From: Fibrobacteria bacterium
Lineage (GTDB): Bacteria; Fibrobacterota; Fibrobacteria; UBA11236
Direction of reading: 5' to 3'
NCBI GenBank assembly: GCA_050486505.1
Contig: JBJHDK010000002.1
Span: forward strand, 1,292 to 65,291
Length of the DNA: 64,000 bases
Made by a program: the position numbers and the translations under genes. The notes under the pieces were generated by a model. That model worked only from the letters and a program-made list of their open reading frames with translations. It did no database searches and was not told the DNA's origin. This document shows positions 1 through 24,486 of this stretch, one piece after another; the stretch's first letter is position 1, and each line of letters starts with the position of its first letter.

Positions 1-1211
1 TGCGCGCGCGCGGCGGGATAAGTCGCCGATGTTTCGGACGAGGGGCGAGCCGTTGCGCGCTCGACACGGTTCCATGTTCCCGTGTCGTTCTGGAAGAGCG
101 CCTTAAACAAGCCGAGCAACAGGGCGTAGTTCATCGAGACGAAATAGAACGGGATCAACAGGAACTTGTGCCGGCGGGCCCGGGACTTGGCAAGGTAACC
201 GAGCGCGGAGAACACGTAGAATGCCACCTGCAAGACGAGAAGGGACGCGTAAAACAGCGAAGCGGCCGCCAGCACGGCATTGGCGGCCAATGCGACGAGC
301 AGCACGATCGGAGCGATCCACCGCAAGAACTTGTGCGAGAAGAAGCCGTAAGCCACCAAGGGGTGCAACGGGTTCAAAAGAGGAGCGTAGCGCCGAAGAA
401 GGTTGAAGTTGGCCTGGCTGATGCGGACCTTGCGGTGAAACTCACCGTACGTGTCGAGCGATGTCTCCTCGCTGCCGATTGCCTGGGGTTCGTAGACAGC
501 TGCCTTTCCGGCGCGCAGCACGCGCGTGGTGACGAAGAAGTCATCCATTACCTTGCAGGCAGTGGGGATCGGGTGAAAAAGCTCCTTGCGGATGGCGTAG
601 ATTCCGCCGTTGGCCCCGATGACGATGCCAAGCGCCCCTTCCTGCTTCTTGATCTCCGATTCCAGATTCCAGTAAATGCTCTCGCCGATACTGAGGGCCG
701 ATTCACCAGCGTCGTGAAGAATGAGGCGTCCGCAGACGCAGCCCGTGTCGGGATCTTCGAAATGAGCCAGCAACTTCTGCAACACGTTTTTCAGGAGCAT
801 CGTGTTCGCGTCGCAGAAGACGAGAATGTCTCCCTGGGCCGCCGGAACCAACCTGTTCAGGACAGCGGCCTTTCCCTCCCGCTGGGGGAACGCGAAGAGC
901 TTGACGTCGGGGGCATACTGGGCTGCGATGGCCTCGGTGCGGTCGCTGGATCCGTCGGACCCGATCAGGATTTCCAGCTTGGATCGGGGGTATTCGAGCT
1001 CGAAGCAATTCCGGATCTTTTCCTCGAGAATTTTCTCCTCGTTGTAGGCAGCGATGATGATCGAAACCTTCGGGAGCTCCCTCCCGCCTCCGGCAACCGG
1101 AGCCGCTCGACGCGAGGGGACGATGCTACGGAGTACCGGAAGGGAGAGAGGGTACAGGATGTAAGTGTGCAGCAAAAGCGCCACCGACACCCAGAAAACG
1201 ACCTCGATCAT
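1..1211 (-). CDS. Family 2 glycosyltransferase (partial; start codon at 1211-1209, C-terminus beyond window start)
   Basis: My reverse-strand translation from ATG 1211: MIEVVFWVSVALLLHTYILYPLSLPVLRSI...KVSIIIAAYNEEKILEEKIRNCFELEYP...GSDGSSD...VFCDANTML. This is a typical GT2 fold with N-terminal TM helix and D/DxD motifs. No in-frame stop down to position 1. Not in the ORF track because it has no stop; the + ORF 168..1310 is its antisense. Confidence 0.75.
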   Translation of the reverse strand, partial: MIEVVFWVSVALLLHTYILYPLSLPVLRSIVPSRRAAPVAGGGRELPKVSIIIAAYNEEKILEEKIRNCFELEYPRSKLEILIGSDGSSDRTEAIAAQYAPDVKLFAFPQREGKAAVLNRLVPAAQGDILVFCDANTMLLKNVLQKLLAHFEDPDTGCVCGRLILHDAGESALSIGESIYWNLESEIKKQEGALGIVIGANGGIYAIRKELFHPIPTACKVMDDFFVTTRVLRAGKAAVYEPQAIGSEETSLDTYGEFHRKVRISQANFNLLRRYAPLLNPLHPLVAYGFFSHKFLRWIAPIVLLVALAANAVLAAASLFYASLLVLQVAFYVFSALGYLAKSRARRHKFLLIPFYFVSMNYALLLGLFKALFQNDTGTWNRVERATARPSSETSATYPAARA

Positions 1212-1735: not shown

Positions 1736-2065
1736 CTAAAGAGAAGCGTCCAGCTTCTCCGCGATCTTGGCCTTGGGGTAGGCGCCGACCAGTTGCTGGA
1801 CCATTTCCCCGTTCTTGAAGAACATGATGGTGGGAATGCTGCGGATCCCGTAACGCGATGCGATTTCAGAGGCTTCGTCGGTATTCAGCTTGGCGACCTT
1901 CGCCTTGCCTTGATACTCCTTGGCGATTTCTTCGACGACGGGGCCGACCATTCGGCAAGGACCGCACCAAGGAGCCCAGAAATCCACCAGAACCGTTCCT
2001 TGGTACTGGGCCACTTCCTGATCGAAGTTCTCGTTCGTCAACTCAACCACTGCTTCACCGGCCAT
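1736..2065 (-). CDS. trxA: Thioredoxin
   Basis: 109 aa; canonical WCGPC motif; full-length thioredoxin-1-like sequence. Confidence 0.95.
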   Translation of the reverse strand: MAGEAVVELTNENFDQEVAQYQGTVLVDFWAPWCGPCRMVGPVVEEIAKEYQGKAKVAKLNTDEASEIASRYGIRSIPTIMFFKNGEMVQQLVGAYPKAKIAEKLDASL

Positions 2066-2381
2066 TGGGCTCTCCTTGTTTTTCTTGTTGCAACGCCTCG
2101 ATCCGCGCGACGACCCGTTCCTGGAAAGGCCTCCAAGCGTCGGGGTTCCCGGCTAGTTGCATGTAATGCTCATGAAACTCCGCGGATGTCATCCCATGTT
2201 GGGCCAAAACGACCCGCCTCATCTCCGCCGCCCTTTCAATGTCATGATCCAGAGCGAGGGAGACCAGCTTCAAATCCGCGTACAAATCTACAAATTTGGC
2301 ATCAGGGGTATGCTCATCGGTGCCACAGGCCACAAGAAAAAGCAGGCTCCAAATTCCCAATATTGCCCGCTTTTCTACCAT
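2055..2381 (-). CDS. Hypothetical lipoprotein
   Basis: Lipobox LFLVAC-G after MVEKRAILGIWSL; start chosen at the internal Met (2381) of track ORF 2055..2411; overlaps trxA start by 11 nt. Confidence 0.5.
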   Translation of the reverse strand: MVEKRAILGIWSLLFLVACGTDEHTPDAKFVDLYADLKLVSLALDHDIERAAEMRRVVLAQHGMTSAEFHEHYMQLAGNPDAWRPFQERVVARIEALQQEKQGEPNGR

Positions 2382-2472
2382 ACTGCCCTCTTTTCCACAA
2401 TCTAACGCCAATCGGCTGATCCGGCGTACGGGGAACGTCGCGACCGCGTCACGTTTTTGTCAGCACCCGCCT

Positions 2473-3378
2473 TCACGCACCGAACAGCCCCCTCGCGAAA
2501 GTTTCCCGGTCGAAAGGGAGCAGATCATCCAACCCCTCTCCGACTCCGACCCAGCGGACGGGCGCATCGAACTCCCTTGAAAGCGTCAGGACCGCCCCTC
2601 CCTTCGCTGTTCCGTCAAGCTTCGTGATGACCAGCCCGTCGAGCGGCACCACGGCTCCGAAGCCCTTGAACTGGGGAATGGCATTTTGCCCGGTATTCCC
2701 GTCGACCACCAGCAAAGCCTGGTGAGGAAGGGCCGGGTCGTGCTTGCGAAGCACCCGAATCAACTTGCGCAGCTCCTCCATGAGGTTGTCGCGCGTGTGC
2801 AGGCGGCCCGCGGTGTCGATGAGCAAGACATCATGACCGCGGGCCTTGGCGGCGGCGTAGGCATCATACGCCACCGAGGCGGCATCGGCCCCCTCATGGT
2901 GCTTGATGACTTCGACCCCGGCCCGATCGGCCCAGGTTTCGAGCTGTGCCACCGCTCCGGCGCGAAAGGTATCGCAGGCGGCGAGCAGCACCTTCTTGCC
3001 CTCGCCGAGGTAACGGTGCGCGATTTTCGCCACCGATGTCGTCTTGCCGGCGCCGTTGACTCCGATGAACAAGACGACGAACGGCTTGGGAAGGGGCGAG
3101 GGAAGGGGGGCCGGCTCGCGCAGGAGTTCCTTGGCCTCCTCGGCGAGCCAGGTCAGCAGGAGTTCCGGGGTCACGTCGCGGCCGTGCGCCCGTTCCCGAA
3201 GCCCTTCGAGCAGGCGCTGGGTCGTCTCGATGCCGATGTCGGCCGCGAGCAGCCGCTCCTCGAGGGACTCCAGGGTCTCTTCCGTGAGAAGGCCCTTGCC
3301 GAAGGCGCCCAGCAGCTCGCGCGTCAGGCTTTCGCGGGTGCGCGAAAGGCCCGAGCGTATCTTGTCGAACAATCCCAT
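2473..3378 (-). CDS. ftsY: Signal recognition particle receptor FtsY (short form)
   Basis: NG domain with GVNGAGKTT P-loop, DTAGR and TKLDG motifs. Confidence 0.95.
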   Translation of the reverse strand: MGLFDKIRSGLSRTRESLTRELLGAFGKGLLTEETLESLEERLLAADIGIETTQRLLEGLRERAHGRDVTPELLLTWLAEEAKELLREPAPLPSPLPKPFVVLFIGVNGAGKTTSVAKIAHRYLGEGKKVLLAACDTFRAGAVAQLETWADRAGVEVIKHHEGADAASVAYDAYAAAKARGHDVLLIDTAGRLHTRDNLMEELRKLIRVLRKHDPALPHQALLVVDGNTGQNAIPQFKGFGAVVPLDGLVITKLDGTAKGGAVLTLSREFDAPVRWVGVGEGLDDLLPFDRETFARGLFGA

Positions 3379-3400
3379 TGCGAGGGGATCCGAACTGCGC

Positions 3401-4003
3401 CTAGAAGCGCGGGGAGACGATGTCGACGAGCCCGTAAGCCTTCGCTTCCTCGGACGTCATGAACTTGTCGCGGTCGGTGTCTTGCTCGATCTTGTCGACA
3501 TCGTGGCCGGAGTGGTCGGAGAGGATCTTGTTCAACGTCTGACGAATGCGCAGCATTTCCTCCGCCTGGATCTCGATGTCTGACGCGGGGCCGAACATGT
3601 GGCCGGAGATCAGGGGTTGGTGGATCATGACGCGGGCGTTGGGCCAAGCGTAGCGCTTGCCCTTGCGTCCCGCGGCGAGCAGCACCGCTCCCATGCTCGC
3701 AGCCTGGCCGCACACAACGGTCGCCACCGGGGACTTCACCGCCTGCATGACGTCATAGATGGCCAGCCCCGAGGAAATCACGCCACCCGGGCTATTAATG
3801 AAGAATGTGATTTCTTCGTTGCCCTTTGAGTCGAGATAGAGGAACTGCTTCACGAGACGCTCGGCCGCAACGTCGTCCACCGGCGTCCAAAGGAAAATCT
3901 TGCGCTGCTTCAGGAAGGATTCTGCGATTTCCTTGGCCAGGGCAAAGCCCTCGTCCTTATCCTTCTCCTTGTCCTTGTCGTCATTCAACAAAAAATCGCG
4001 CAT
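3401..4003 (-). CDS. clpP: ATP-dependent Clp protease proteolytic subunit
   Basis: ClpP-family motifs IFL..PVDD, GQAASMGA (Ser nucleophile), MIHQP (His). Confidence 0.9.
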   Translation of the reverse strand: MRDFLLNDDKDKEKDKDEGFALAKEIAESFLKQRKIFLWTPVDDVAAERLVKQFLYLDSKGNEEITFFINSPGGVISSGLAIYDVMQAVKSPVATVVCGQAASMGAVLLAAGRKGKRYAWPNARVMIHQPLISGHMFGPASDIEIQAEEMLRIRQTLNKILSDHSGHDVDKIEQDTDRDKFMTSEEAKAYGLVDIVSPRF

Positions 4004-4104
4004 AAAACCGCCTGAGTTTCAGTGTTTTGGGGAGAAGATACATCCGCCCCGTAACCATGGAAATGCGTTTCAGGATGGAACAGGGGGCAATCAATACAAC
4101 ATAC

Positions 4105-4190
4105 AGCAAAACAGCAATACAACAATAGGGAAGCCGGAATTCGATCGCCCGCCCCTTTATTGTTGTACTGCTGTACTGTCCATTGTTTTA
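4105..4190. repeat. Long imperfect inverted repeat (~35-nt arms, ~32-nt loop) in the AT-rich cysS-clpP intergenic region
   Basis: CAATACAACATACAGCAAAACAGCAATACAACAAT ... ATTGTTGTACTGCTGTACTGTCCATTGTTTTACTGTACACTG; arms built from repeated CAATACAACA / TGTACTG units; local GC far below the window average. Confidence 0.5.
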
Positions 4191-4202
4191 CTGTACACTG
4201 CC

Positions 4203-5633
4203 CTACTGCCTCTCCCATTCCATCGTCCCGTCCGGGTTGTCTTTCAGCACGAAGCCAGCGGCGCGGAACCGGTCCCTGATCGCGTCACTGCGCGCCCAGT
4301 CCTTGTTCTTGCGGGCTTCGGCGCGCTCCGCCAGAAGCGGGACGAGTTCGGCGGGCAACTCGACCGCGTCCTCCGTTTCGGCGGGCTCCGTCAGACGAAG
4401 TCCGAGCATGGTGTCGAACAGCGCCACCAGCCCCGCACGCTCGCCCTCGAGCAAGTCGGGATCCTTCAGCATGAGGTTCATGATGCCGAGTGCCTGGGGG
4501 AAGTTCAGATCATCGCCGACCGCCTCCTCGAAACGGGCGCGCCACTCGAGTGCGCGGTCGGAGCGCACGGGGGCCGCCTTGCCGATGAACGGATCGGTAC
4601 GCTTGCGCAGGTTGCGCAGGGAATCGCGCGCGGTGTCCATGCCCTGGTAGCTGAAGTTCAGGTAATTGCGGTAGTGCGCCGTCAAGCAGAAGTAGCGGTA
4701 ATCCATGGCCGAGTAACCCTGCCTGATCAGCACATCGAGCGTGATGAACTCGCCGGAGGACTTGGACATTTTGCCCGCCCCCCCTTTGCACGTCTCGTCA
4801 GGCGCCTCGAGCAACCAGCCGCCGTGGATCCAGAAGCGCGCGAACGGCTTGCCGGTGGCGCACTCCGATTGCGCGATCTCGTTGGTGTGATGCACGCGGA
4901 TGTGGTCGGTGCCCCCGCAGTGGATGTCGATGGTCTCGCCCAGCAGCTTCATCGCCATCGCGGAGCATTCGACGTGCCATCCCGGAAACCCGCGGCCCCA
5001 CGGGGAGTCCCATTCCATCTGTCGTTGCGCGTCTTTGGGCGAAAACTTCCACAGCGCAAAGTCGGTGGGATTACGCTTCCCCTCCGCCATGGCGACGCGC
5101 GCCCCCGCCTGCATTCCCTCGAGGTCGAGCTTCGCGAAGTCGGCATAACGCGGAAACTTCGCTGTGTCGAAATACACGCCATCTTCGGGCACGACATAAG
5201 CGTAACCCTTCTCCTCGAGCTCGCGCACCAGTTCGATCTGCTCGGGAATGTGCCCCGTCGCCTTGGGCCAGGCGGTGGGCTCACGCAGGTTGAGCGCCTT
5301 CCAGTCCTTGAAGAAGGCCTGCGCATACTGTTCCGCGATGTCCCACACCGACTTGCCCTCGCGGCGGGCACCCTTCTCCATCTTGTCTTCGCCGGTGTCG
5401 GCGTCGGAGGTGAGGTGGCCAACGTCGGTGATGTTGACCACATGCTGTACGGTGTATCCGGCGTGCTCGAGGGCGCGGCGCAACAGGTCCTCGAAGACGT
5501 AGGTGCGCAGGTTGCCGATGTGGGCGAAGTGGTACACCGTCGGGCCGCAGCAGTACATCTTCACGATCCCGGGCGTGATGGGTTCGAAGGGCTGCTTGGC
5601 ACGGGCGGCGGTATTGTAAAGATGGAGCTGCAT
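4203..5633 (-). CDS. cysS: Cysteine--tRNA ligase
   Basis: HIGN and KMSKS class-I aaRS motifs; full-length CysRS. Confidence 0.95.
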   Translation of the reverse strand: MQLHLYNTAARAKQPFEPITPGIVKMYCCGPTVYHFAHIGNLRTYVFEDLLRRALEHAGYTVQHVVNITDVGHLTSDADTGEDKMEKGARREGKSVWDIAEQYAQAFFKDWKALNLREPTAWPKATGHIPEQIELVRELEEKGYAYVVPEDGVYFDTAKFPRYADFAKLDLEGMQAGARVAMAEGKRNPTDFALWKFSPKDAQRQMEWDSPWGRGFPGWHVECSAMAMKLLGETIDIHCGGTDHIRVHHTNEIAQSECATGKPFARFWIHGGWLLEAPDETCKGGAGKMSKSSGEFITLDVLIRQGYSAMDYRYFCLTAHYRNYLNFSYQGMDTARDSLRNLRKRTDPFIGKAAPVRSDRALEWRARFEEAVGDDLNFPQALGIMNLMLKDPDLLEGERAGLVALFDTMLGLRLTEPAETEDAVELPAELVPLLAERAEARKNKDWARSDAIRDRFRAAGFVLKDNPDGTMEWERQ

Positions 5634-7326: not shown

Positions 7327-10300
7327 ATGACGCGCCACGCGCTGTGCGCCCTGGCCGCGCTTTTCCTGCTTCACGGCGCGCATGCGGGCGGATTCACGCT
7401 CAACCGCAATGCCGCGCACATCGACTGGCGCACCGCCGAGACCGAGCATTTCAGGTTTCACTACCCCCGCGAGCTTGAGGACGTGGCGGGTCACATTGCC
7501 GGAATCGCCGAAGAGGTGGCTGCCGACAAGCTGGCCCGTTACGCCATCACGCTACCCAACAAGGTCGAATTCGTCGTGCGCGACGACATCTTCTCCAACG
7601 GTTGGGCGAACGCCCTGCAAAACACCATGACCGTGTGGGCCACGGACTGGGACTTTCCGGTGCGCGGCACCCACAACTGGATCCGCGACGTCGTCACCCA
7701 CGAGTTCGCCCATCTTGTTTCAATCCAGTCGGGGTCGAAGCTGCCCAGCTTCTTGCAGGGCGTGGTCGCAGGGTTCGAAGGATATTACAACGCGCCCCTG
7801 CAACCCCGTCTCGCGACCATTTTTCCCTTCACGCACCAGCCCGCATGGTTCGCCGAGGGCGTCGCTCAATACGAATCGGAACTTTCCGGGTATGACGCAT
7901 GGGATTCCCATCGCGACATGCTCCTGAGGATTTCGGCCCTGGAGAACCGCCTCCTGCCGATCGAGCGCATGAGCGTCTTCGCCGGCAATGCGCTTGAGTA
8001 CGAGCTGGGCCCATACACGCAAGGCTTCGCCCTCACCCGCTTCATCGCCGAACGTTACGGCGACGAAGCCGTATTGCGACTTTGGGCCGAGAATGCCCGG
8101 ATCCATCGCCAGACGATGTCGGGGTCGATGCAGCGCGTCCTCGGCAAAAGCGACCGCGAGGTGTTCCGGGAGTGGAGAAGCGAAATCACGGCACGTTACA
8201 CCGACCAGGTCCGCGACCTGGGCGAGCTGCACCAAGGGCAGAAGCTCACCTCGAAGGGCTTCTACAACTACTACCCGCGCTGGGACGCGAAAGGCGAGGG
8301 GGTTTTCTTCGTCAGCAATGCCGGGCGCGACGACTTCCGCGCGACGCTCGGGCGGGTGGCGCTCGAGGATACCGTCAAGCCCGAGGAAGAACGGTTCGAG
8401 CCCGTGCCCGGCATCAGGGGATTCTTCGATGTCGCCGCGGACGACAGCACCTTCCTGTACGCGTCGGCCCGCGAGCGGGACAGGAACGGAGTCCACACCC
8501 TCGACATCTACCAGCGCAACCTGCGGCGCGACGCGCGATTCTTCGAGAGACAGGATCCCACCGAGAAGCGCTTCACCCGCGACCTCAATGCCGTGCATCC
8601 GAACTACGCCCCTGACGGAACGCGCATCGCCTTCGTATATGCCGAGGCTTCGAATTTCTTTCTCGCGGTCGCACCGGTTCCCGAAGGGGACTCCCTGGAT
8701 GCGGAGGACGTCCGCACGCTCTTCCCTCCGCCCGAATTGCTGGAGAGGAGATTCGGCTTCAACATCTATACCCCGAAGTTTTCCCCCGACGGGGAGCGTA
8801 TCCTGTTCTCTTGGTTTGACGGGGCGGAACGCAACATCGGCATCATCAACGCCGACGGATCGGGGTTCCAGGGATTGGTCACCGGCCCCGAGGACGCGCG
8901 CGACCCGGAGTGGGACCCCGATGGAAACTCCTTCTACTATGCCTCGGACAAGACCGGCATTTTCAACCTCTACCGTTTCGACCTGACGACCGGCGACACG
9001 GAGCCCGTCACCAATGTGCTTGGCGGCGCCTTCCTGCCCTCCGTTTCGCCCGACGGGGAACGCATCGCCTACGTGAATTACGACCGCGACGGTTTTTCCA
9101 TCTACGTGTTGCACGACCCCGTTCGCGTGAACGTACCCGCGGCCTCGCATCTGGAGCAGCGACATGCGACATCGGCGCCGCCCGCGCTCGAGTTCGCCGG
9201 GCTAGGGCGCTCCTATACCCCGGTGCCGACCCGGGGGATTCTTACGCCCATCCTTTTCGGGCAGCAGACACTGGCGGCCACCCGCGAGAAGGGCGTCATC
9301 CCCGAACAGGGGGTCACCAAGTGGCTCGCCGGAGCCTCGGGGTACCTCACCGATCCCGTGCTCAAGAACGAGCTCTCCGCCGTGCTGCTCGCGGAAATCG
9401 GCAACGGGTTCGCATACTTCGGCAGGCACAGCGCATTGGTGTCTCCCGACAAGGAATCGCAGCTCTACGTCGACATCACCAACAATGCCACTCCGGTGAC
9501 CCTGCAGGCATCCTTCTTCCGCGGGAACCTCAACACCTTCGACACCGTCACCGTCCGCGACCAGCCGCAGCCCGGCGGCGGCGTGGCCGACGAGCAACTG
9601 CGCCAGGATTACGCGCTCACGTTCCGCAGCGTGGAAGCCGCCGCGGCCTACAATCTGTTCGACGCCCAGGCAGTGGGAACCTGGGATCGTCCCAGCCACG
9701 TGCGCATGGCACTCGGCTACGATTGGAACGACTTCAACTTCTACGATCTCGGCGGCGGGCAGGGGTTCGCCTTCACCTACTACAAGAGCCTGCGCCTGAC
9801 CACGAGCCTGAATCTTCACGGCTCGGGCTACAGCGACAAGGGGTTGGTGGCTCCGAGAGGTTTCGCCGCGATCCTGGCTCACACCTTCCGCGAGAGCGAT
9901 CTCTTCGGTTGCGACAGCGATTACATCAGCGACTGTTTCGACTTCGAGGGCGGCGCCCTTCGTCCCCGCTACCAAACCTACCGGTTTCACGAACTCGATG
10001 CCGGGGCGACCTACGGTCGCGCAATGCCGTGGTCGCGCAATGCCAGCATCGTCGCATCGGTGTTCGCCTCGAGCCTCGCCGACTGGTCGCTCACCCGCAG
10101 CGAACTCGCCGCCGACACGCTCGACCGCTTTTTCGAGAGAGGCCTGTTCCTGCGCGGCTACCCCTTCCTGCGCGACATCGAAAGCCTCGCCTTCGGCGGG
10201 GAGAATTCCATCACGCTCAGCCTTGATCTCAATCAACCCCTGATCGCCGACATTTATCGCAACTACTGGACGGTGTTCGTCGAGGATCTTTATCTGCACC

Positions 10301-10668
10301 TGTTCTGGGAAGCCGGGCGGGCATGGAATGGATCGATGTGGGATGCTGAGTTGTTCTCCCCCTCGGCGTGGACGCCGGAGCGTCGGGCTGACGGCTGGTA
10401 CCAAAGCGTGGGCGGAGGCCTCAAGCTGAACGCGCGCATCTACCACAACTATCCTTTTCTCGTGTACTTTCAGGCCGCGCGCGCGCTTTCGGGCCTACCC
10501 GACGGCGAAGGCGGATTCATCGCCTTGGACAACGTGCGCGTCGCCGGTTTCGAAACTCCCGCCAGCCGCATCGAGTTCGGCGTGAGCTTCGGGCTCTACA
10601 GCGGCCTGCTCACCCGCAGAAGCGAGCGCCACCCCCTGAATCCGGAGTCGCCCTTTGCCAGGCGCTAG
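7327..10668 (+). CDS. Secreted multidomain protein: N-terminal HExxH zinc-metallopeptidase-like domain, TolB/PD40-type beta-propeller repeats, C-terminal beta-rich Omp85-like region
   Basis: Signal peptide MTRHALCALAALFLLHGAHA from the internal Met of track ORF 7249..10668; HEFAHL...FAEGVAQYE motifs; repeats of the PDG(E/T)RIAF / SPDGERI(L/A) type; C-terminal alternating hydrophobic strands (GFAFTYY, LKLNARIYHNYPFLVYF, RIEFGVSFGLY). Confidence 0.8.
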   Translation: MTRHALCALAALFLLHGAHAGGFTLNRNAAHIDWRTAETEHFRFHYPRELEDVAGHIAGIAEEVAADKLARYAITLPNKVEFVVRDDIFSNGWANALQNTMTVWATDWDFPVRGTHNWIRDVVTHEFAHLVSIQSGSKLPSFLQGVVAGFEGYYNAPLQPRLATIFPFTHQPAWFAEGVAQYESELSGYDAWDSHRDMLLRISALENRLLPIERMSVFAGNALEYELGPYTQGFALTRFIAERYGDEAVLRLWAENARIHRQTMSGSMQRVLGKSDREVFREWRSEITARYTDQVRDLGELHQGQKLTSKGFYNYYPRWDAKGEGVFFVSNAGRDDFRATLGRVALEDTVKPEEERFEPVPGIRGFFDVAADDSTFLYASARERDRNGVHTLDIYQRNLRRDARFFERQDPTEKRFTRDLNAVHPNYAPDGTRIAFVYAEASNFFLAVAPVPEGDSLDAEDVRTLFPPPELLERRFGFNIYTPKFSPDGERILFSWFDGAERNIGIINADGSGFQGLVTGPEDARDPEWDPDGNSFYYASDKTGIFNLYRFDLTTGDTEPVTNVLGGAFLPSVSPDGERIAYVNYDRDGFSIYVLHDPVRVNVPAASHLEQRHATSAPPALEFAGLGRSYTPVPTRGILTPILFGQQTLAATREKGVIPEQGVTKWLAGASGYLTDPVLKNELSAVLLAEIGNGFAYFGRHSALVSPDKESQLYVDITNNATPVTLQASFFRGNLNTFDTVTVRDQPQPGGGVADEQLRQDYALTFRSVEAAAAYNLFDAQAVGTWDRPSHVRMALGYDWNDFNFYDLGGGQGFAFTYYKSLRLTTSLNLHGSGYSDKGLVAPRGFAAILAHTFRESDLFGCDSDYISDCFDFEGGALRPRYQTYRFHELDAGATYGRAMPWSRNASIVASVFASSLADWSLTRSELAADTLDRFFERGLFLRGYPFLRDIESLAFGGENSITLSLDLNQPLIADIYRNYWTVFVEDLYLHLFWEAGRAWNGSMWDAELFSPSAWTPERRADGWYQSVGGGLKLNARIYHNYPFLVYFQAARALSGLPDGEGGFIALDNVRVAGFETPASRIEFGVSFGLYSGLLTRRSERHPLNPESPFARR

Positions 10669-11596
10669 GCGCAAGCGGGTCGCCCCGGCGTCGCCGCAAC
10701 CCCCGGGTTATGCGTACGTCAACGGTCGCATCACGCGCGCGGACCGCGCCGCCATCTCCGTCTTCGACCGCGGCCTCGTCCTGGGCGACGGGCTCTTCGA
10801 AACACTGCGGGCGCATCACGGAGTTCCGGAGTTCCTCGACCTGCATTACCGGCGCCTCGTGAAATCAGCGCGCCGCTTGCGCATCCGCGTGCCCGTGACG
10901 GAGACGGAGCTGCGCGACATCATCGCGACGCTGTGTCGCAAAAGCCGGATGTACGACGCCGCGGTCCGCATCACCCTGACGCGCGGCCGCTATTTCGGCG
11001 GCCTCGCCATCGACCCCGAGGTTCCCCCATCGCTCATCGTCGTGGTGTTGCCGGTGCAACCGCTTCCCACCGACATCCTCGCACGCGGGGTGAAAGTGGC
11101 GGTGTCCTCGATCAACAAAACAGCCGCATCGGGCCTCGACCCGCGCATCAAGTCGATCAACTATCTGGCCAACATCTTCGCCAAGGCCGAAGGCGACCGC
11201 AAGGGGTGCTACGAGGCGATTCTGCTCGGCCCGCGCGGCGAGATCGCCGAATTGTCCACCTCAAGTTTCTTCTGCGTGCTCAAGGGCGTGGTCGTCACGC
11301 CCCCCATCGACACCGGCATCCTGCCCGGCATCACCCGCCAGGTGCTGCTGCGCGAGATGAAGCGGCACCGTATCCCCTTCCGCGAGGCGGAAGTGTTTCC
11401 CAAGGACGTGGAGAAGATGTCGGAAGCGTTCCTGTGTTCCTCGGTGCGCGGCCCGGTGCCGATCGCGCGCATCGACGGAAAGAAGGTGGGAACGGGCAAG
11501 CCGGGCTCGATTTTCGCGCGACTCAGGGATCTGTATCAGGATGCGTGCGAGAGGGAGTTGCGAGTCGCGAGTTACGAGTTACGAGTTACGAAGTAA
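10655..11596 (+). CDS. Class IV (fold-type IV) aminotransferase: aminodeoxychorismate lyase / branched-chain or D-amino-acid aminotransferase family
   Basis: Family-typical N-terminus YAYVNGRI...; length about 300 aa; the last ~13 codons (ELRVASYELRVTK) and the stop lie inside the heptamer repeat arm. Confidence 0.8.
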   Translation: MPGARRKRVAPASPQPPGYAYVNGRITRADRAAISVFDRGLVLGDGLFETLRAHHGVPEFLDLHYRRLVKSARRLRIRVPVTETELRDIIATLCRKSRMYDAAVRITLTRGRYFGGLAIDPEVPPSLIVVVLPVQPLPTDILARGVKVAVSSINKTAASGLDPRIKSINYLANIFAKAEGDRKGCYEAILLGPRGEIAELSTSSFFCVLKGVVVTPPIDTGILPGITRQVLLREMKRHRIPFREAEVFPKDVEKMSEAFLCSSVRGPVPIARIDGKKVGTGKPGSIFARLRDLYQDACERELRVASYELRVTK

Positions 11597-14287: not shown

Positions 14288-14398
14288 GCCGGAAAGCATG
14301 GGGAACCCTGCCGGTTCCCCCTCCGTCGGGGTTTTCTTCACGGGGAACCCCCGAATCCCCCTGAAATTCTACCTTTGCCCGCTCTTCGGGCACCAGTA

Positions 14399-14475
14399 GC
14401 TCAGCTGGATAGAGCGTCGCCCTCCGAAGGCGAAGGTCACAGGTTCGACTCCTGTCTGGTGTACCACCTCACCCA
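14399..14475 (+). tRNA. tRNA-Arg (anticodon CCG)
   Basis: Folds by hand into a cloverleaf: acceptor GCACCAG/CTGGTGT, D-arm GCTC-AGCTGGATA-GAGC, anticodon loop CTCCGAA, T-arm ACAGG-TTCGACT-CCTGT, 3' ACCA. Confidence 0.85.
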
Positions 14476-14484
14476 TCCGCATCC

Positions 14485-14796
14485 TCATCGCGCCTCCCGC
14501 CGCCAGGCCAGGATCCACCCCGCATCGCGGTGGCGCACGATCGCGCGACCTGCAGCGATAGCCCGGCGCACTTCCGTGTCGCGGCGCTTCAGCCAGAGCT
14601 CCAGCCGGAGCGCCTCCGGCTTTCCCGACACCTTTCGCCTCCACACGCACTCCGCCGGACGGCGGGACGGCACCATGTACCGGGCGCCCTTTCCGGAGTT
14701 GTGCATCGCCAGACGGCGCTCCAGATCGTTCGTTACCCCGCAATAAAGGGAGCCGTCGCGGCAGCGCAGGAGGTAGACGATCCAGGGGGATTTCAT
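14485..14796 (-). CDS. GIY-YIG nuclease family protein (UPF0213-like)
   Basis: WIVYLLRCRDGSLYCGVTNDLERRLAMHNSGKGARY is a canonical GIY-YIG block; start taken at the internal Met of track ORF 14485..14874; lies immediately 3' of the tRNA-Arg. Confidence 0.75.
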   Translation of the reverse strand: MKSPWIVYLLRCRDGSLYCGVTNDLERRLAMHNSGKGARYMVPSRRPAECVWRRKVSGKPEALRLELWLKRRDTEVRRAIAAGRAIVRHRDAGWILAWRREAR

Positions 14797-15134
14797 GGGG
14801 TTCCGCCTCGAAACCCCTCTGCGGAGGGGCTGGAAGAATGAAAAACCCGGTTTCCGCTTTTTCCGAAATCGCACCGAAACGGTGTTCCGGTCCCGGGTTC
14901 AAATCGCCTTAACGCATTGAAAGAACAAATACTTATAAAACAAGCGGCCGGTTTCGGGATGCGCAAAACCCGGGCAGGGAGGGCACTTCCGGGCGCACCC
15001 CCGATTTTTCCTTGTGTTTTTTTTTCATTTAACACCTATCTTTTTCGTTGAGTCCTTTTGAAGTTCATGTGCCCTGTGTCCAGAGCCGCTCCATTTGGAT
15101 TTCACAATCCAACCCCCCCTCAAGGAAATAGTGT

Positions 15135-15434
15135 ATGAATCTGTTCGTCGGTAACCTCGCATGGGCCACGACCCAAGCGGATCTGGAAGCGGCTTTCGGC
15201 GCCTACGGTGAAGTGTCCTCTGCAAAGATCATGACGGATCGCGAAACGGGAAAGTCCCGCGGCTTCGCCTTCGTCGACATGCCCAATGACTCCGAGGCCC
15301 GCAAGGCCATCGAAGAGCTGAATGGCAAGGACCTCAAGGGTCGCGCCATCAACGTGAACGAAGCGCGTCCCCGCGAAGAGCGTCCGCGCTCCGGCGGCTT
15401 CGGCGGTGGCGACCGCGGCCCCCGTCGCTGGTAA
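15135..15434 (+). CDS. RNA-binding protein (RRM/RNP-1 domain, Gly/Arg-rich tail)
   Basis: RNP-2 LFVGNL and RNP-1 RGFAFV motifs; long AT-richer 5' leader. Confidence 0.9.
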   Translation: MNLFVGNLAWATTQADLEAAFGAYGEVSSAKIMTDRETGKSRGFAFVDMPNDSEARKAIEELNGKDLKGRAINVNEARPREERPRSGGFGGGDRGPRRW

Positions 15435-15449
15435 GCTTCGGAAGTCATC

Positions 15450-15488
15450 AAAAAAGAACCCGCCCAGAAGGGCGGGTTCTTTTTTTTG
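15450..15488 (+). terminator. Rho-independent terminator
   Basis: AAAAAAGAACCCGCCC agaa GGGCGGGTTCTTTTTTTT: GC stem plus U-tract. Confidence 0.85.
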
Positions 15489-15511
15489 TCCGTGCGCGGC
15501 GCGGAGGCGAA

Positions 15512-16648
15512 TCAGCGCACGGCGTACTTGGCCAGCGCTTCGGAAGCCGGAGAGGCCACCGGTTTGACGAGATACCGGATATCGGGCCACGTTCCGGTGA
15601 GAATCACGGCATATCCTTGGTCGACACCCGTGGCGACGTATGACGACATGTCGCCGCCGAAGGATTCTTCGGTGGCGAGGTCGCCCGTGTGCGTGCGTGT
15701 CGCCAAGTCGATCTTCTCCACGCCGCCTTCCAAGTCGCCGTAGCCGGCGACGCCGGCGATGTACCAGACACCATCATGAACGGACGCGGCAATCGGATTA
15801 CGAAAGTTCAGGGGAATGGTGTCGGTGATCGTGCGCGTGGCGGCGTCGATCACGAGCACCAGCGACGTGTCATTCGCTTGCCACTGGTGATCGAGGCGTT
15901 GCAGGGCGACGAAAACATTGCCGCCGTGCGCCGCGACAAGGGACATGCGCGGGACATTCGTCGAGGAGTCGCGTGAATACGCCGACAGGTCGATCGAATC
16001 CCGGGCACCGCCGTCGATGGCATCGGGATCAACGATCAGGAGGTGGGTGGAATTATAGCGCGGAATCCACGCCTTGCCGCCGGCGATGGCCACACCGTAG
16101 GGATTGGAGTTCGGCCCTGCCTGAACGTCCAGGGTGATGTTGCGGCCGGGACGATTTCCCTCGAATCCCGTCACGACGCCGATCGAGCGGTCGAGCAGAT
16201 AAACCCTGCCGTCCGCGGCGGCGACCGAGGGATCGGATCCGATCGACCCCACGCTCTGGCGGATGCGCCCCGCCACGGGATCGATGACGCTCACCCCGCC
16301 TTCCACGTAATCGGTTTCCGTGACGACGACGTGGCCATCCGCGGTGAACGCAAGCGAGGTAGGAGGCAGAAGCTGCGGATAGTAAGCCGTAATGATCCCG
16401 GTGGAAACATCCACAGCGGCCACACCGGGCTCCGACGCGTGGCGGTTCCCTGCATAGAGAATACCGTCGCGGTATGCGAGTCCGGAGACATCGGTCAGGC
16501 TGTCCACCGACTTTCCGACCCAGGCGGAATTCGTGCCCGAGACACCGGAATTCCCGGAAGGGCCGGAATCGAAAAGGTTGCAGGCGGAGAGCAACAGGGC
16601 GGTCGCCCCGAGAAGCCCGATGCGTGGAAGGGAGTGATGTGTTTTCAT
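15512..16648 (-). CDS. Beta-propeller surface lipoprotein, BtuG-like (cobalamin-binding partner of BtuB in Bacteroidota)
   Basis: Lipobox LLLSAC; repeated propeller-blade pattern; immediately downstream of the B12-riboswitch-controlled TonB receptor. Confidence 0.6.
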   Translation of the reverse strand: MKTHHSLPRIGLLGATALLLSACNLFDSGPSGNSGVSGTNSAWVGKSVDSLTDVSGLAYRDGILYAGNRHASEPGVAAVDVSTGIITAYYPQLLPPTSLAFTADGHVVVTETDYVEGGVSVIDPVAGRIRQSVGSIGSDPSVAAADGRVYLLDRSIGVVTGFEGNRPGRNITLDVQAGPNSNPYGVAIAGGKAWIPRYNSTHLLIVDPDAIDGGARDSIDLSAYSRDSSTNVPRMSLVAAHGGNVFVALQRLDHQWQANDTSLVLVIDAATRTITDTIPLNFRNPIAASVHDGVWYIAGVAGYGDLEGGVEKIDLATRTHTGDLATEESFGGDMSSYVATGVDQGYAVILTGTWPDIRYLVKPVASPASEALAKYAVR

Positions 16649-16657
16649 GTAGTTCCT

Positions 16658-18628
16658 TTACAGGTTGAGGGAAAGACCGAGCGACCAGGTCCGACCGCTT
16701 CGGGGACTGTAGACGAAGTCCCGATACTGTCGGTCGGTGAGATTTCGGACATCGAGGGAGAGTCTGATCGGGCCGCGATGCAAGGCACCGTGGGCACCCC
16801 ACTCCACCTCGGCATCCCGGCGCGATACGGGAAGGTTGGCTTCGCCCGGATACCATGGGCTCCGGAAACCGAGCGTCGGTCCCAGGCGCGCGCCCTCGAA
16901 CGGCTTGGCGAAGAATCCCGCGTGCGCCTCGACGGGACTGTGGTGCGCGGGGCGGTTTCCCGCGTGCAGTCCCTCGGTGATCTCCGCGCGCGACAGGGCG
17001 GCCGATGCCGCGGCTTCGAAACGGCGCGAATCCCATCCCCCTGAAAGTTCAAGACCGCGCACTTGGTAATCCGCACGGTTCTCGTACAGCAGAAAGGGAG
17101 AAGCGCCGCGCGCGCCAAGGCGGATCGGGTCGGTGTGAAGATTCCAGTATGCCTCCCAACGCGCGCTCCATGCCCCATGACCGAGGCCGTGCAGGATCGA
17201 AACCCCCGACGTTTCCTCCGGGCGCAGCGCTGTGTTCGCCTGCACGCCGTGGTTGTCGCCCAGCAATTCGCCGGAAGAAGGCGCGCGCTGCTCATGCTTG
17301 GCCACGGCCGCGAAGATCCCCACGGTCGTTTGCCATTGCAGTGCGGCACGCAATGTGGATGGCATGCGCGCCACCGAGACCCGATCTCCCTCGGGTGCGT
17401 CGGGATAGGCGCGCACCGCATCGGCATCGAAACGCACCGCCGCCGCCCGCGCCTCCAGCGTTGCGTTCAGGAACGGCGTGATGCCGTGATCCATGCGCCA
17501 CCCGAGCAGTGCCTCCAGCCTGCGCCCCGCGGGCGCGGACATGTTTTGCGAAAACGGCGTTTCGCGCGGATCGACGGTTTCGGCACGCAAATGAGCGTCC
17601 GTCGCGAAGGCCAGTGTCCCGGTCAGCGGAAGCCGCGCGCGCGCGTCCACCCCGGCGGATGTCGAGACCCGTTCCAACGCGTGCGAGAGATGGCCCAGCG
17701 TGCGACCGGGATCGCGATACGCGTCGGTGGCGCGATGCGCCTGCACGCCCGCCTCCCAGGACATGATCTCACCGTGATGCCGCGCGCGCCAGGCCCCCAT
17801 CCATGCCTCGCGCACCGTGTAGGCGCTTGATCCGGTGCCGAGCAACCCGGGATATTCCTTGCGCGATTCCAGCCAAAGCAGGGAGACGTCCTGGCCAAAA
17901 AACCCGTTTCCGGCGCGGGCCGAGGCACGGACCCCCCGGCTCCAGTACCCGTTGTTCCGCATGCGCGTGACACCGTCGTCGTCCGGATTGTGGATCGTGC
18001 CGTTGTCGTTGAACCATGGGTAATCGTTGCGGGCATGCTGGCCCTGCACACCGATCGACCATTGCGTCACCCCGTTTCCGCGAACGGTCACGGCGGACTC
18101 CGCGGTTCCATGCGAGCCACCCCGGGCGTGCGCTTCGGTTCGGTCGGCACCGTGGGAGGACAAATCGATGCGGGCCAGCATGCCGGAACCGACGACGTCG
18201 GGATCGACCCCGGTGCGCGCCTCCAGCGACGTGAACCAAAGCAACGGCCACTTGGAAAGATCGGGCGCGGGGTCGCCATCCTGGTTGAGGCGCATTCCGT
18301 CGACGTAGATCTCGATGGATGAGGCGCGCGCGCCGCGAAAACTCAATTCGGAGTAGCCGCCCAGCCCGCCCTGCCGGCGCACGCGAAAACCCGGCAACGA
18401 AGCGATCGCATCCTCAAGGGTCGCGAAACGGCGCAGGGCCTCGCCCTCGATGCGATGCGTGTCGGGTGAGGAGGACTCACTGCTGCGGCCGTACGCCTCC
18501 GTTCCCGGCAACTCGAGCGCTTCGGGCGTGACGCCATCGTCCGCGGCGACGGAAACCGCAAGGACAAACGGCACGGCGCGGGCGAAGGTCCGCGCAAAGA
18601 TCCGCTTTCCCGTAGGGACGTGCGGCAT
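16658..18628 (-). CDS. btuB: TonB-dependent outer-membrane receptor, BtuB-like (cobalamin)
   Basis: Plug and barrel motifs; C-terminal ...SLGLSLNL; start at internal Met MPHV (RBS AAGGAAGG upstream) rather than the track start 18709, which falls inside a palindrome; cobalamin riboswitch upstream. Confidence 0.8.
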   Translation of the reverse strand: MPHVPTGKRIFARTFARAVPFVLAVSVAADDGVTPEALELPGTEAYGRSSESSSPDTHRIEGEALRRFATLEDAIASLPGFRVRRQGGLGGYSELSFRGARASSIEIYVDGMRLNQDGDPAPDLSKWPLLWFTSLEARTGVDPDVVGSGMLARIDLSSHGADRTEAHARGGSHGTAESAVTVRGNGVTQWSIGVQGQHARNDYPWFNDNGTIHNPDDDGVTRMRNNGYWSRGVRASARAGNGFFGQDVSLLWLESRKEYPGLLGTGSSAYTVREAWMGAWRARHHGEIMSWEAGVQAHRATDAYRDPGRTLGHLSHALERVSTSAGVDARARLPLTGTLAFATDAHLRAETVDPRETPFSQNMSAPAGRRLEALLGWRMDHGITPFLNATLEARAAAVRFDADAVRAYPDAPEGDRVSVARMPSTLRAALQWQTTVGIFAAVAKHEQRAPSSGELLGDNHGVQANTALRPEETSGVSILHGLGHGAWSARWEAYWNLHTDPIRLGARGASPFLLYENRADYQVRGLELSGGWDSRRFEAAASAALSRAEITEGLHAGNRPAHHSPVEAHAGFFAKPFEGARLGPTLGFRSPWYPGEANLPVSRRDAEVEWGAHGALHRGPIRLSLDVRNLTDRQYRDFVYSPRSGRTWSLGLSLNL

Positions 18629-18691
18629 GATTCCTTCCTTCCGCGGGGCTGGGCCGCGGAACGATTGTCTGCGTCTGTCGAGGGGGCGGGC

Positions 18692-18719
18692 GTAGGGGCA
18701 AATAATCATTTGCCCCTAC
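18692..18719. repeat. 28-bp palindrome copy 1 (GTAGGGGCAAATAATCATTTGCCCCTAC), extended by flanking GGGCGGGC/GCCCGCCC
   Basis: Read directly; lies in the btuB 5' leader between the riboswitch aptamer and the start codon; near-identical copy at 62963-62990. Confidence 0.8.
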
Positions 18720-24276: not shown

Positions 24277-24486
24277 TGTAACACGAAACCGCTTCGTTCG
24301 CCTTCCGTTTTCACGGAATCGGAACCCCGGGGGCAAAACTGCCGGAGATCGGGCCGAAAACCGTCCTCCCGTCCGCCTCCCTGATTGATTCTGCCCGCCG
24401 GTCTAGGTAAGTTTCCCCGACAGCAAGGGGATACGCCGGCCCGGGACTTTTCACCCCGGAGCGCCCGATCCTCCGGAGACCGCCGC

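Follow-up and report, generated by a model that had tools for sequence, protein, structure and literature searches.

Omp85 proteins are universal machines for outer membrane protein insertion and two-partner secretion. To our knowledge, all characterized members except the patatin-like protein PlpD are POTRA based and without enzymatic activity. PlpD is the one Omp85 protein formerly thought to export its own N-terminal enzyme domain (type Vd secretion), but experiments have shown that this domain stays periplasmic and is tethered to the outer membrane (PMC11116518). Barrels without POTRA domains also occur in the noNterm and Metallo subfamilies of Omp85 proteins (PMC4104836) and in the noNterm proteins of Leptospira (PMC11358297), and some of these barrels are joined to an enzyme domain other than POTRA, for which a periplasmic and a surface location have been debated. 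None of the ten Omp85 subfamilies described in that study contains a Peptidase_MA or PD40 domain, and neither Fibrobacter nor PD40 is mentioned there (PMC4104836).

We analyzed a 64,000-nucleotide stretch of DNA from a Fibrobacteria bacterium (the window), which encodes a protein, here called X, that invites comparison with these systems. PlpD is the best analogue for the way in which X probably works: in both proteins, a single polypeptide carries an enzyme domain ahead of an Omp85 barrel with 16 strands. However, PlpD, found in Pseudomonas, consists of a patatin lipase with one POTRA domain and forms homodimers, whereas X, found in the FCB superphylum, lacks POTRA and combines a gluzincin with a PD40 propeller. 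X resembles the noNterm and Metallo proteins in having a barrel without POTRA domains, although the N-terminal domain of Metallo Omp85 proteins is PF00149, which is unlike X in both fold and chemistry (PMC4104836). BamA, TamA, and Sam50 have one to seven POTRA domains and work with lipoprotein partners; in X, catalytic domains are present instead.

The X gene (Table 1) has an unbroken translation, a database protein (P0001) is identical to its product in sequence and length, and a database search returned more than 500 collinear homologues. Its GC3 of 0.82 is similar to that of the adjacent genes. Two minus-strand open reading frames inside it (7720-9165 and 9202-10446) were rejected as genes because their composition, with its GC1-high signature, is that of shadow frames. 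The N terminus, MTRHALCALAALFLLHGAHA followed by GG, reads on inspection as a Sec signal peptide, and the AlphaFold2 model shows a helix at residues 2 to 15 followed by low pLDDT at residues 16 to 22. A lipoprotein reading was rejected because C7 is preceded by H-A-L and a lipobox is thus absent. The gene and the signal peptide had both been noted in a preliminary description of this DNA; the gene is confirmed, and the signal peptide is probable.

Table 1. Features of X and of the gene that encodes it (positions are those of the window)
Feature	Position	Strand	Evidence
Complete gene for X (peptidase-propeller-Omp85 fusion), 1113-aa precursor	7327..10668	+	Open reading frame, homologues, GC3
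Sec-type signal peptide, residues 1-20, likely cleaved between AHA and GG, no lipobox	7327..7386	+	Read by eye (inference)
Gluzincin-type zinc metallopeptidase domain, residues ~25-298, Peptidase_MA_2-like	7399..8220	+	Pfam, model
HEFAH zinc-binding/catalytic motif, H125 E126 H129 (residues 125-129)	7699..7713	+	Conservation
E177 in WFAEGVAQYE, presumed third zinc ligand (gluzincin Glu)	7855..7857	+	Conservation
Six-bladed PD40/TolB-like beta-propeller, residues 300-596	8224..9114	+	Pfam, PDB sequences, Foldseek, DSSP
Linker, residues 597-635, coil, not POTRA	9115..9231	+	DSSP, invariant columns
16-stranded Omp85-superfamily beta-barrel, residues 636-1087	9232..10587	+	Model, Foldseek, motifs
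L942-R-G-Y945 lid-lock motif, extracellular loop 6 (residues 923-959)	10150..10161	+	Conservation, published motif
F993-W-E-A-G997, strand 13, counterpart of the Omp85 FxDxG lid-lock motif	10303..10317	+	Conservation, hhalign
C-terminal tail after strand 16, residues 1088-1113, disordered	10588..10665	+	pLDDT

The HEFAH motif and E177 are invariant in 92 Fibrobacterota homologues and in 14 sequences from several phyla. Among 80 genome loci, 79 encode HExxH at the equivalent position (between residues ~115 and 270, typically at ~125 to 150), and the only one without it, L039, is a broken reading frame. The Pfam family Peptidase_MA_2 matched the window protein with an E value of 7e-4 and 19.8 bits, under its gathering score of 32.4, and matched eight of eight homologues with E values of 2e-7 to 2e-5 (24.7 to 31.4 bits, against the same gathering score); the relative P0231 exceeded this score with 42.2 bits and passed that of Peptidase_M9 as well. 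In the model, the region adopts an alpha/beta fold with HExxH on an active-site helix (residues 118 to 135) and the downstream Glu on a helix of its own (residues 173 to 186), an arrangement characteristic of gluzincins. The WFAEGVAQYE segment resembles the WLNEGFA motif of the M1 family, and a further motif, WDSHRDM, is near-invariant across phyla, with few conservative substitutions. These results agree with the earlier proposal of an MA-clan-like HExxH peptidase, and on its sequence the zinc protease of X is apparently active.

The propeller was likewise recognized correctly in the preliminary description as a set of TolB-type blades. PD40 matched X in three stretches (4.8e-16), TolB structures matched it by sequence at 1e-12 and matched the propeller of the full-length model at ~1e-10 in Foldseek, and DSSP assigned about six four-stranded blades; relatives of X also have precomputed matches to Tricorn_N and Tricorn_2nd. 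X has a six-bladed PD40 propeller like that of TolB, which differs in being soluble in the periplasm, in having an N-domain that binds TolA, and in lacking an enzyme. Tricorn and the DPP-IV/S9 enzymes, like X, join a propeller to a peptidase, but they are serine peptidases without a membrane barrel. By analogy with these enzymes, the propeller-peptidase pairing in X suggests a role in substrate filtering or binding.

Between propeller and barrel, Pfam detected no POTRA domain at E ≤ 1 in the window protein or in eight homologues, and in the model the stretch ahead of strand 1 is coil, preceded directly by the propeller. Residues Y630, P634, and P641, just ahead of strand 1, are invariant. The linker has a pLDDT of ~70 to 92 in the full-length model and of 40 to 57 when modeled without the N-terminal domains.

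Since the Foldseek list for the full-length model (pLDDT, 88.9; pTM, 0.86) was dominated by TolB and S9 propellers, with the other two domains not represented, the C-terminal region was modeled separately (pLDDT, 85.0; pTM, 0.82). The full-length model has 16 long strands in this region, and the best 50 Foldseek matches of the separate barrel model were all members of the Omp85 superfamily. The preliminary description had foreseen an Omp85-like, beta-rich C terminus of ~400 residues; the Omp85 likeness holds, but the barrel is larger, at ~450 residues, and is followed by a disordered tail of 26 residues. Both models give this tail a pLDDT of <50, and only the clade of the window conserves the NPxSPFA motif in it.

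Searches of Pfam and NCBIfam with the window protein and close homologues found no match to Omp85, POTRA, or T9SS families, including PF01103 in Pfam for the window protein and eight close homologues. Against PDB sequences, a barrel-only profile found nothing at E ≤ 10 and the full-length profile found propellers only, so an Omp85 assignment was not possible by direct sequence search. The barrel of X has diverged past detection by the PF01103 hidden Markov model, unlike the BamA, TamA, and Sam50 comparison set. The barrel profile did reach P0185 (E = 3e-12) and P0245 (E = 7e-8), and the same regions of these full-length relatives pass the PF01103 cutoff of 24 with 28.6 and 25.1 bits, respectively. 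TamA matches in relatives of X were weak. A match to the C-terminal barrel was obtained in nearly all loci with a complete open reading frame among the 80 genome loci.

Omp85 proteins carry a lid-lock motif defined as (L/M)RG(W/Y) (PMC11358297), which takes the form LRGY in Flavobacterium johnsoniae BamA (PMC12611786); across the Omp85/TpsB superfamily, the loop 6 motif can be written more widely as (V/L/M)RG(F/Y/W). In X, LRGY sits in the loop that joins strands 11 and 12. G944 and Y945 show no or almost no variation, and all 92 Fibrobacterota sequences share P946 as well. On strand 13, every one of these 92 sequences has G997; X has Glu in place of Asp, and relatives have the canonical FxDxG. 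When the barrel alignment was compared with the single Escherichia coli BamA barrel by hhalign, strands 12 to 14 were aligned with a probability of only 9.7%, and the FWEAG stretch was in register with FFWDMGTVW of BamA (P = 0.0033); this alignment was used only in support. The two halves of the lid-lock also covary, with R/K in loop 6 accompanied by E/D in strand 13 in 72 of 75 sequences and E/D in loop 6 accompanied by Q in 67 of 67 sequences, although one or a few evolutionary events may account for this pattern. Given that the lid-lock is conserved, loop 6 is expected to plug the barrel lumen. Prediction and homology together indicate that the C-terminal ~450 residues form an Omp85-type barrel with a lid-lock closed by loop 6.

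With strand 1 starting on the periplasmic side, loops L2, L5, L6, L7, and L8 of the model are 19 to 37 residues long and turns T1, T2, T5, and T7 are 2 to 5 residues long, a pattern that fits the standard Omp85 topology with the N terminus of strand 1 in the periplasm. Because strand 1 starts at the periplasmic face in every solved Omp85 barrel that we know of, the enzyme module is most likely periplasmic. The reading that we favor, and that we consider reasonably probable, is that X is a Sec-exported Omp85-barrel outer membrane protein that holds a zinc peptidase and a propeller tethered under the outer membrane, much as PlpD holds its lipase. The N-terminal ~600 residues, read as a gluzincin packed beside a six-bladed propeller, would stand in for POTRA domains. 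The barrel would anchor the protein and might offer an edge for docking, the propeller would be a platform that binds or gates substrates, as it does in TolB, Tricorn, and the S9 peptidases, and the peptidase would cleave envelope polypeptides. BepA of E. coli, a periplasmic M48 zinc metalloprotease that has a TPR domain and is positioned at BAM for envelope protein quality control, is a functional analogue only: it comes from another peptidase family, exists as a soluble protein of its own, and has TPR where X has a propeller.

The gene neighborhood of X points to a more specific context. The 80 genome loci comprise 34 outside the class Fibrobacteria and 46 within it, including the window. 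In all 34 loci outside the class, the gene immediately upstream of that for X, in the same orientation, encodes a T9SS-dependent inactivated M6-like protease (M6i); 29 of the loci also have PorV upstream, 11 have PorU upstream, and 24 have DUF5683 downstream, in the order porU-porV-M6i-X-DUF5683. The M6i neighbor matches NF052323 ("T9SS-dependent M6-like inactivated metalloprotease") with E values of 1e-96 to 1e-157, carries Por_Secre_tail, and lacks HExxH. Since the X gene is embedded in this cluster outside the class Fibrobacteria, its ancestral job was probably tied to type IX secretion.

The T9SS linkage was found in none of the 46 class Fibrobacteria loci. In the window, X lies among housekeeping genes (SagB-like, CysS, ClpP, FtsY, and a class IV aminotransferase). 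In close relatives, no gene recurs beside X other than those for the nitroreductase/SagB-like protein and the class IV aminotransferase; this close-relative context was rejected as a guide to function, no functional link being apparent. A T2SS/T4P-like cluster lies upstream of X in Fibrobacter sp. UWR2 and is not conserved. When an M6-like partner was sought for the class Fibrobacteria, the best 120 matches came from Chitinispirillia/Chitinivibrionia, apart from two "Fibrobacter sp." metagenome-assembled genomes, which we take to be loosely named. The clade of the window has lost the T9SS linkage and kept all catalytic and barrel motifs.

The arrangement of X, a barrel protein, beside M6i, a protein with the T9SS C-terminal domain, is reminiscent of the barrel-plus-cargo pairs PorV-PorU and PorQ-PorZ. 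However, the barrels of PorV and PorQ are FadL-like and have 14 strands, while that of X is Omp85-like, and X, as well as its relatives, has no match to Por_Secre_tail or TIGR04183, the T9SS C-terminal domain. No component like X is mentioned in the T9SS papers searched. We raise only tentatively, as a possibility that falls short of being likely, that X is an unrecognized outer membrane component of the T9SS in non-Bacteroidia FCB phyla, an Omp85-scaffolded active zinc protease with PorV, PorU, and M6i as partners. Its ancestral task might then be, for example, the processing or quality control of cargo in the periplasm or of attachment-complex components, or the assembly of the attachment complex. 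In the class Fibrobacteria, the gene has been relocated among housekeeping genes, and X would be retained there as a stand-alone envelope protease.

The preliminary description had instead suggested a type V-like, self-exporting surface protease. On such a reading, the barrel would export its own peptidase-propeller to the cell surface, as in type Vd secretion or autotransport, for action on extracellular proteins, possibly together with the T9SS-secreted M6-like pseudoprotease. This proposal is unsupported by the present data, and we regard it as unlikely. TpsB-type transport requires POTRA domains, which X lacks, and the loop and turn pattern fits a periplasmic enzyme module. A folded peptidase-propeller of 600 residues would also be an unlikely passenger for a 16-stranded pore that is implied to be plugged by loop 6, and X does not carry a T9SS C-terminal domain. 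The enzyme domain of PlpD, moreover, has been shown to be periplasmic (PMC11116518).

Quite unlikely, in our assessment, is that X is a specialized BamA/TamA-like insertase or assembly factor whose barrel inserts or assembles particular outer membrane proteins, such as PorV-family barrels or T9SS attachment-complex parts, with the peptidase-propeller replacing POTRA as a substrate receptor or chaperone and proteolysis secondary or regulatory. Most of the top structural matches of the barrel are the insertases BamA, TamA, and Sam50, strand 16 is short in the model (residues 1081 to 1087), a feature shared with BamA that would fit a lateral seam, and the X gene is linked to PorV-family barrels. 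In addition, BamD (TIGR03302) is encoded two genes downstream of X in a Marinimicrobia locus, but in that lineage only, and the invariance of HExxH and its Glu, along with the near-invariance of WDSHRDM, argues for a working peptidase over a mere receptor. A role as a TolB paralogue or Tol-Pal component is highly improbable: the propeller matches TolB in sequence and fold and source annotations say as much, but the TolB equivalog TIGR02800 matches partially (80.6 bits against a cutoff of 343.15, residues 480 to 595 only), the TolB N-terminal domain is absent, no tol-pal genes are adjacent, and the architecture, two thirds of which is peptidase and membrane barrel, contradicts it.

X belongs to a large, unnamed family that is mislabeled as TolB. 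Members occur in at least 569 species-representative genomes, in Fibrobacterota, Ignavibacteria, Latescibacterota, Zixibacteria, KSB1, Gemmatimonadota, and Marinimicrobia, and are widespread in environmental metagenomes; BLASTP alignments are collinear, for example with a Latescibacterota protein over residues 24 to 1051 (6e-108) and with P0231 (1e-71). Database labels read "Tol biopolymer transporter," "PD40 protein," "Tol biopolymer transport system component," or "tolB protein precursor." No NCBIfam model covers X, and our literature search found no publication on the family and none combining Omp85 and PD40, in line with the earlier impression that it is not a described family. The supplements of the envelope proteome paper on Fibrobacter succinogenes contain no PD40, TolB, or WD40 entries.

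Thousands of "TolB" and "Tol biopolymer transporter" entries in the databases are thus misannotated. PlpD gave rise to the idea that the Omp85 barrel has been put to new use as a scaffold that keeps periplasmic enzymes at the outer membrane, and the X family takes this idea further. If X is indeed a T9SS component, it would be both the first Omp85 protease and the first Omp85 link to the T9SS. The near-universal linkage to porU, porV, and the M6-like gene outside the class Fibrobacteria offers a concrete clue, open to testing, to an accessory function that is missing from the T9SS, and this clue matters in Ignavibacteria, Latescibacterota, Gemmatimonadota, Marinimicrobia, and Chitinispirillia, where the T9SS has hardly been studied.

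An AlphaFold2 model of the full-length 1113-aa protein, built from a 92-sequence Fibrobacterota alignment, had a pLDDT of 88.9 and a pTM of 0.86, and borders assigned by DSSP divided it into an alpha/beta domain, a propeller, a linker and a C-terminal barrel (see the table). We are highly confident in this predicted architecture. The sequence features named in the preliminary description, namely, HEFAH, WFAEGVAQYE, PD40 repeats and a beta-rich C terminus, were all found, and its domain calls were accurate. Public protein P0001 matches the product in sequence and length, and more than 500 homologues of 1070 to 1220 aa aligned end to end with it. The GC3 of the gene (0.82) is in line with the codon-position GC of neighboring genes; two long minus-strand ORFs within it carry a GC1-high signature and were discarded as shadow frames. 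The N terminus, MTRHALCALAALFLLHGAHA followed by GG, lacks a lipobox upon inspection by eye and reads as a Sec signal peptide. At the other end, the tail is disordered in the models, and its motif R-x-P-x-N/R-P-x-SPFA is common only to the window protein and its closest clade (P0010, P0021 and P0024).

Features of the protein, its gene and neighboring genes
Feature	Position	Strand	Details
Gene of the 1113-aa protein	7327-10668	+	unbroken ORF, 1113 codons
Alpha/beta domain	residues ~25-298		DSSP; HExxH helix 118-135, E177 helix 173-186
Propeller	residues 300-596		DSSP; ~six four-stranded blades
Linker	residues 597-635		DSSP; coil
Barrel	residues 636-1087		DSSP; sixteen long strands
C-terminal tail	10588-10665 (residues 1088-1113)	+	26 residues past last barrel strand
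SagB-type dehydrogenase (nitroreductase-family) domain protein, 493 aa	5774-7255	-	divergent from the gene, 71 bp apart
Class IV aminotransferase gene (branched-chain / D-amino-acid / PabC-like)	10655-11596	+	overlaps last 14 nt of the gene
DUF5683 proteins of homologous loci	L006 10000-10815, L009 10233-11859, L010 10429-11731, plus 21 loci		3' of the family gene in T9SS-type clusters

Within the alpha/beta domain, HEFAH occupies residues 125-129, and E177 lies in WFAEGVAQYE. H125, E126, H129 and E177, together with WDSHRDM (192-198), are invariant or nearly so among the 92 Fibrobacterota sequences, and the first four are also invariant in a 14-sequence multi-phylum alignment. The Pfam model Peptidase_MA_2 matched the window protein below threshold (7e-4) and 8 of 8 homologues at 2e-7 to 2e-5; in P0231, a full-length relative collinear with the window protein (E=1e-71), it scored 42.2 bits against a gathering score of 32.4, and Peptidase_M9 passed too. 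Judging from these sequence data, the domain is probably an active peptidase of the gluzincin type. The PD40 repeats that follow had matches in Pfam (PD40, 4.8e-16) and among TolB structures (~1e-12).

A separate model of residues 600-1113 (pLDDT, 85.0; pTM, 0.82) was compared with solved structures using Foldseek; all of the top 50 matches belonged to the Omp85 superfamily, the best being Flavobacterium johnsoniae BamA (E=6e-7). Direct sequence methods failed to make this connection, as Pfam found no match to PF01103 (Omp85) in the window protein or eight homologues and a profile of the barrel had no match among PDB sequences. A transitive sequence link exists via the barrel-profile matches P0185 and P0245, in which the same region exceeds the Pfam Omp85 gathering score; other relatives gave weak TamA matches. 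Searched against 1.84 billion representatives, the barrel-only profile retrieved just 235 clusters, nearly all of them full-length proteins of ~1000-1200 aa whose C-terminal part is the barrel.

The Omp85 lid-lock pairs an (L/M)RG(W/Y) motif in loop 6 with FxDxG on strand 13 (PMC11358297), the former being LRGY in F. johnsoniae BamA (PMC12611786). Both published motifs are present in the window protein at structurally correct positions: L942-R-G-Y945 in the loop of 37 residues that joins strand 11 to strand 12 and F993-W-E-A-G997 on strand 13. With hhalign, FWEAGRAW fell in register with FFWDMGTVW of Escherichia coli BamA (P=0.0033; probability, 9.7%). Among 172 family members, Arg or Lys in loop 6 was accompanied by Glu or Asp on strand 13 in 72 of 75 cases, and Glu or Asp in loop 6 by Gln on strand 13 in 67 of 67. 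The latter set is one large clade, apparently the genus Fibrobacter and close relatives, where R943 is replaced by Glu/Asp and E995 by Gln, a difference that, on the alignment, is a coupled swap of the putative lid-lock pair. Such covariation is as expected from direct contact, although only a few evolutionary events may lie behind it. No POTRA domain was detectable by profile in the window protein or homologues, or in the model; the protein resembles the "noNterm" Omp85 group in this respect and differs from BamA, TamA, TpsB and PlpD.

In Omp85 structures, the N terminus of strand 1 is at the periplasmic face. The modeled barrel has long loops (L2, L5, L6, L7 and L8; 19-37 residues) and short turns (T1, T2, T5 and T7; 2-5 residues), a pattern that agrees with this orientation. 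To our knowledge, PlpD is the sole Omp85 protein once thought to export its own N-terminal enzyme. That enzyme domain has been shown to stay in the periplasm (PMC11116518). Given the strand 1 orientation, the loop pattern of the model and the PlpD precedent, the enzyme module is probably periplasmic. The protein would then be a zinc protease tethered to the outer membrane, with the barrel acting as an anchor and perhaps also as a dock for substrates or partners, the propeller binding or filtering substrates and the gluzincin domain cleaving them. The linker, with conserved Y630, P634 and P641, is ordered only in the full-length model, a hint that the barrel and the enzyme module meet at a fixed interface.

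The preliminary description had instead proposed a protease that exports itself to the cell surface. This is probably the wrong direction: type Vd-like self-export of the module appears unlikely, since there is no POTRA domain, the PlpD precedent runs contrary and the lid-lock is conserved, and a periplasmic location is likelier. A dedicated insertase whose receptor is not a POTRA domain is a rather poor candidate as well, being weakened by the strictly kept catalytic residues. That the protein is a TolB paralogue, as databases label it, is contradicted by its architecture and highly improbable.

At least 569 loci of the family emerged when GTDB genomes, one for each species, were scanned with a pattern. 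The best 80 of these are mostly from the class Fibrobacteria but also from Chitinispirillia, Raymondbacteria, Zixibacteria, Ignavibacteria, Latescibacterota, KSB1 and Gemmatimonadota, and a cluster look-up added an "FCB group bacterium" and Marinimicrobia/Fidelibacterota, among them the cultured Fidelibacter multiformis (WP_400167668.1). Among these 80, HExxH was found in 79 at residue ~115-270 (typically ~125-150) of the upstream-extended ORF, and nearly all complete ORFs encode 1000-1200 aa with a C-terminal barrel-profile match. BLASTP aligned the window protein collinearly with a family member from Latescibacterota over residues 24-1051 (6e-108). Four species-representative contigs that carry homologues, labeled Alistipes onderdonkii (L031), Bifidobacteriales (L021), Oscillospiraceae (L052) and Acidobacteriota (L083), are probably mis-binned; the homologues on the first three are Fibrobacter-like in appearance and, over their best segment, share 30-56% identity with the window protein, and the one on the fourth lies in a full porU-porV cluster of the type described below.

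Source labels for the family are confined to "Tol biopolymer transport system component," "PD40 domain-containing protein," "tolB protein precursor," "DPP IV N-terminal domain-containing protein," "WD40 repeat protein," "sugar lactone lactonase YvrE" and "hypothetical," and no NCBIfam model covers it. Of the ten Omp85 subfamilies in the census by Heinz and Lithgow (PMC4104836), none has Peptidase_MA or PD40, neither of which is mentioned there, and our literature search found no paper with "Omp85" and "PD40" together. The family is large, unnamed and mis-annotated and adds a new architectural variant to the Omp85 superfamily.

In the window, the gene overlaps an aminotransferase gene, which suggests cotranscription. 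This aminotransferase gene, immediately 3', and the divergent SagB-type gene recur at two further loci (L002 and L003); CysS, ClpP, FtsY and thioredoxins are encoded further upstream. The arrangement is kept in close relatives but not in other Fibrobacteria, no RiPP-type partner genes were seen near the SagB-type gene, and neither the window nor the Fibrobacteria loci viewed held an informative partner gene. In Fibrobacter sp. UWR2 (L001:203-7932), the family gene is directly 3' of a type II secretion/type IV pilus-like cluster (T2SSE ATPase, secretin, PilN and N_methyl pseudopilins) that was not seen at the other Fibrobacterota loci for which called genes were compared. The window also encodes, with no connection to this gene, a TonB-dependent-receptor-like protein with a Plug domain (16658-18709, minus strand), whose adjoining ORFs (15512-16648 and 14369-14902) had no family matches, and an HpnJ-like B12-binding radical SAM protein (24385-26058, plus strand).

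Outside the class Fibrobacteria, the first four loci viewed had a gene for a ~1000-aa protein followed by the family gene. This neighbor matches NCBIfam NF052323, "T9SS-dependent M6-like inactivated metalloprotease" (E, 1e-96 to 1e-157), has a T9SS C-terminal sorting domain and lacks HExxH at all four loci. When all retrieved loci were surveyed with tblastn, the M6-like gene was immediately 5' on the same strand at 34 of 34 loci outside the class, among them those of Chitinispirillia and Raymondbacteria, which are deep lineages of Fibrobacterota; a PorV-family gene preceded it at 29, PorU preceded PorV at 11, and DUF5683 lay 3' of the family gene at 24. The M6-like, PorV, PorU and DUF5683 genes were found in the flanks of 0 of the 46 class Fibrobacteria loci, window included. 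DUF5683 is often accompanied by a weakly similar ~245-aa paralogue, and the two sequences inspected at L009 have a signal peptide, a hydrophobic PGxGE/Q segment and an aromatic last residue.

One locus from a Chitinispirillaceae MAG (L061) encodes, upstream of the M6-like gene, an 813-aa PorV-family protein (1764-4205, plus strand) whose N terminus is extended by ~500 aa, part of which matches PorZ. Four kilobases downstream of the family gene, a 965-aa ORF (15047-17944, plus strand) encodes three joined parts: a barrel of the PorV/PorQ family (residues 41-310), a phosphoesterase region resembling UshA and a TolB-like PD40 propeller; it is a second nearby fusion of an outer membrane barrel, an enzyme and a PD40 propeller, with a barrel of a different family.

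The genomic link to type IX secretion, previously unreported, is strong in most of the family's range. The family protein itself has no T9SS C-terminal domain and so is not T9SS cargo; the association with porU, porV and the M6-like gene across the family suggests ancestral partners or substrates in type IX secretion, and T9SS-type sorting of cellulases has been proposed in Fibrobacter succinogenes (PMC6851124). On this gene-neighborhood evidence, the chances that the family serves a T9SS-related function are about even, and they are lower for the window's member. In its clade, the T9SS link may be only historical, and a general role as an envelope protease is equally possible.
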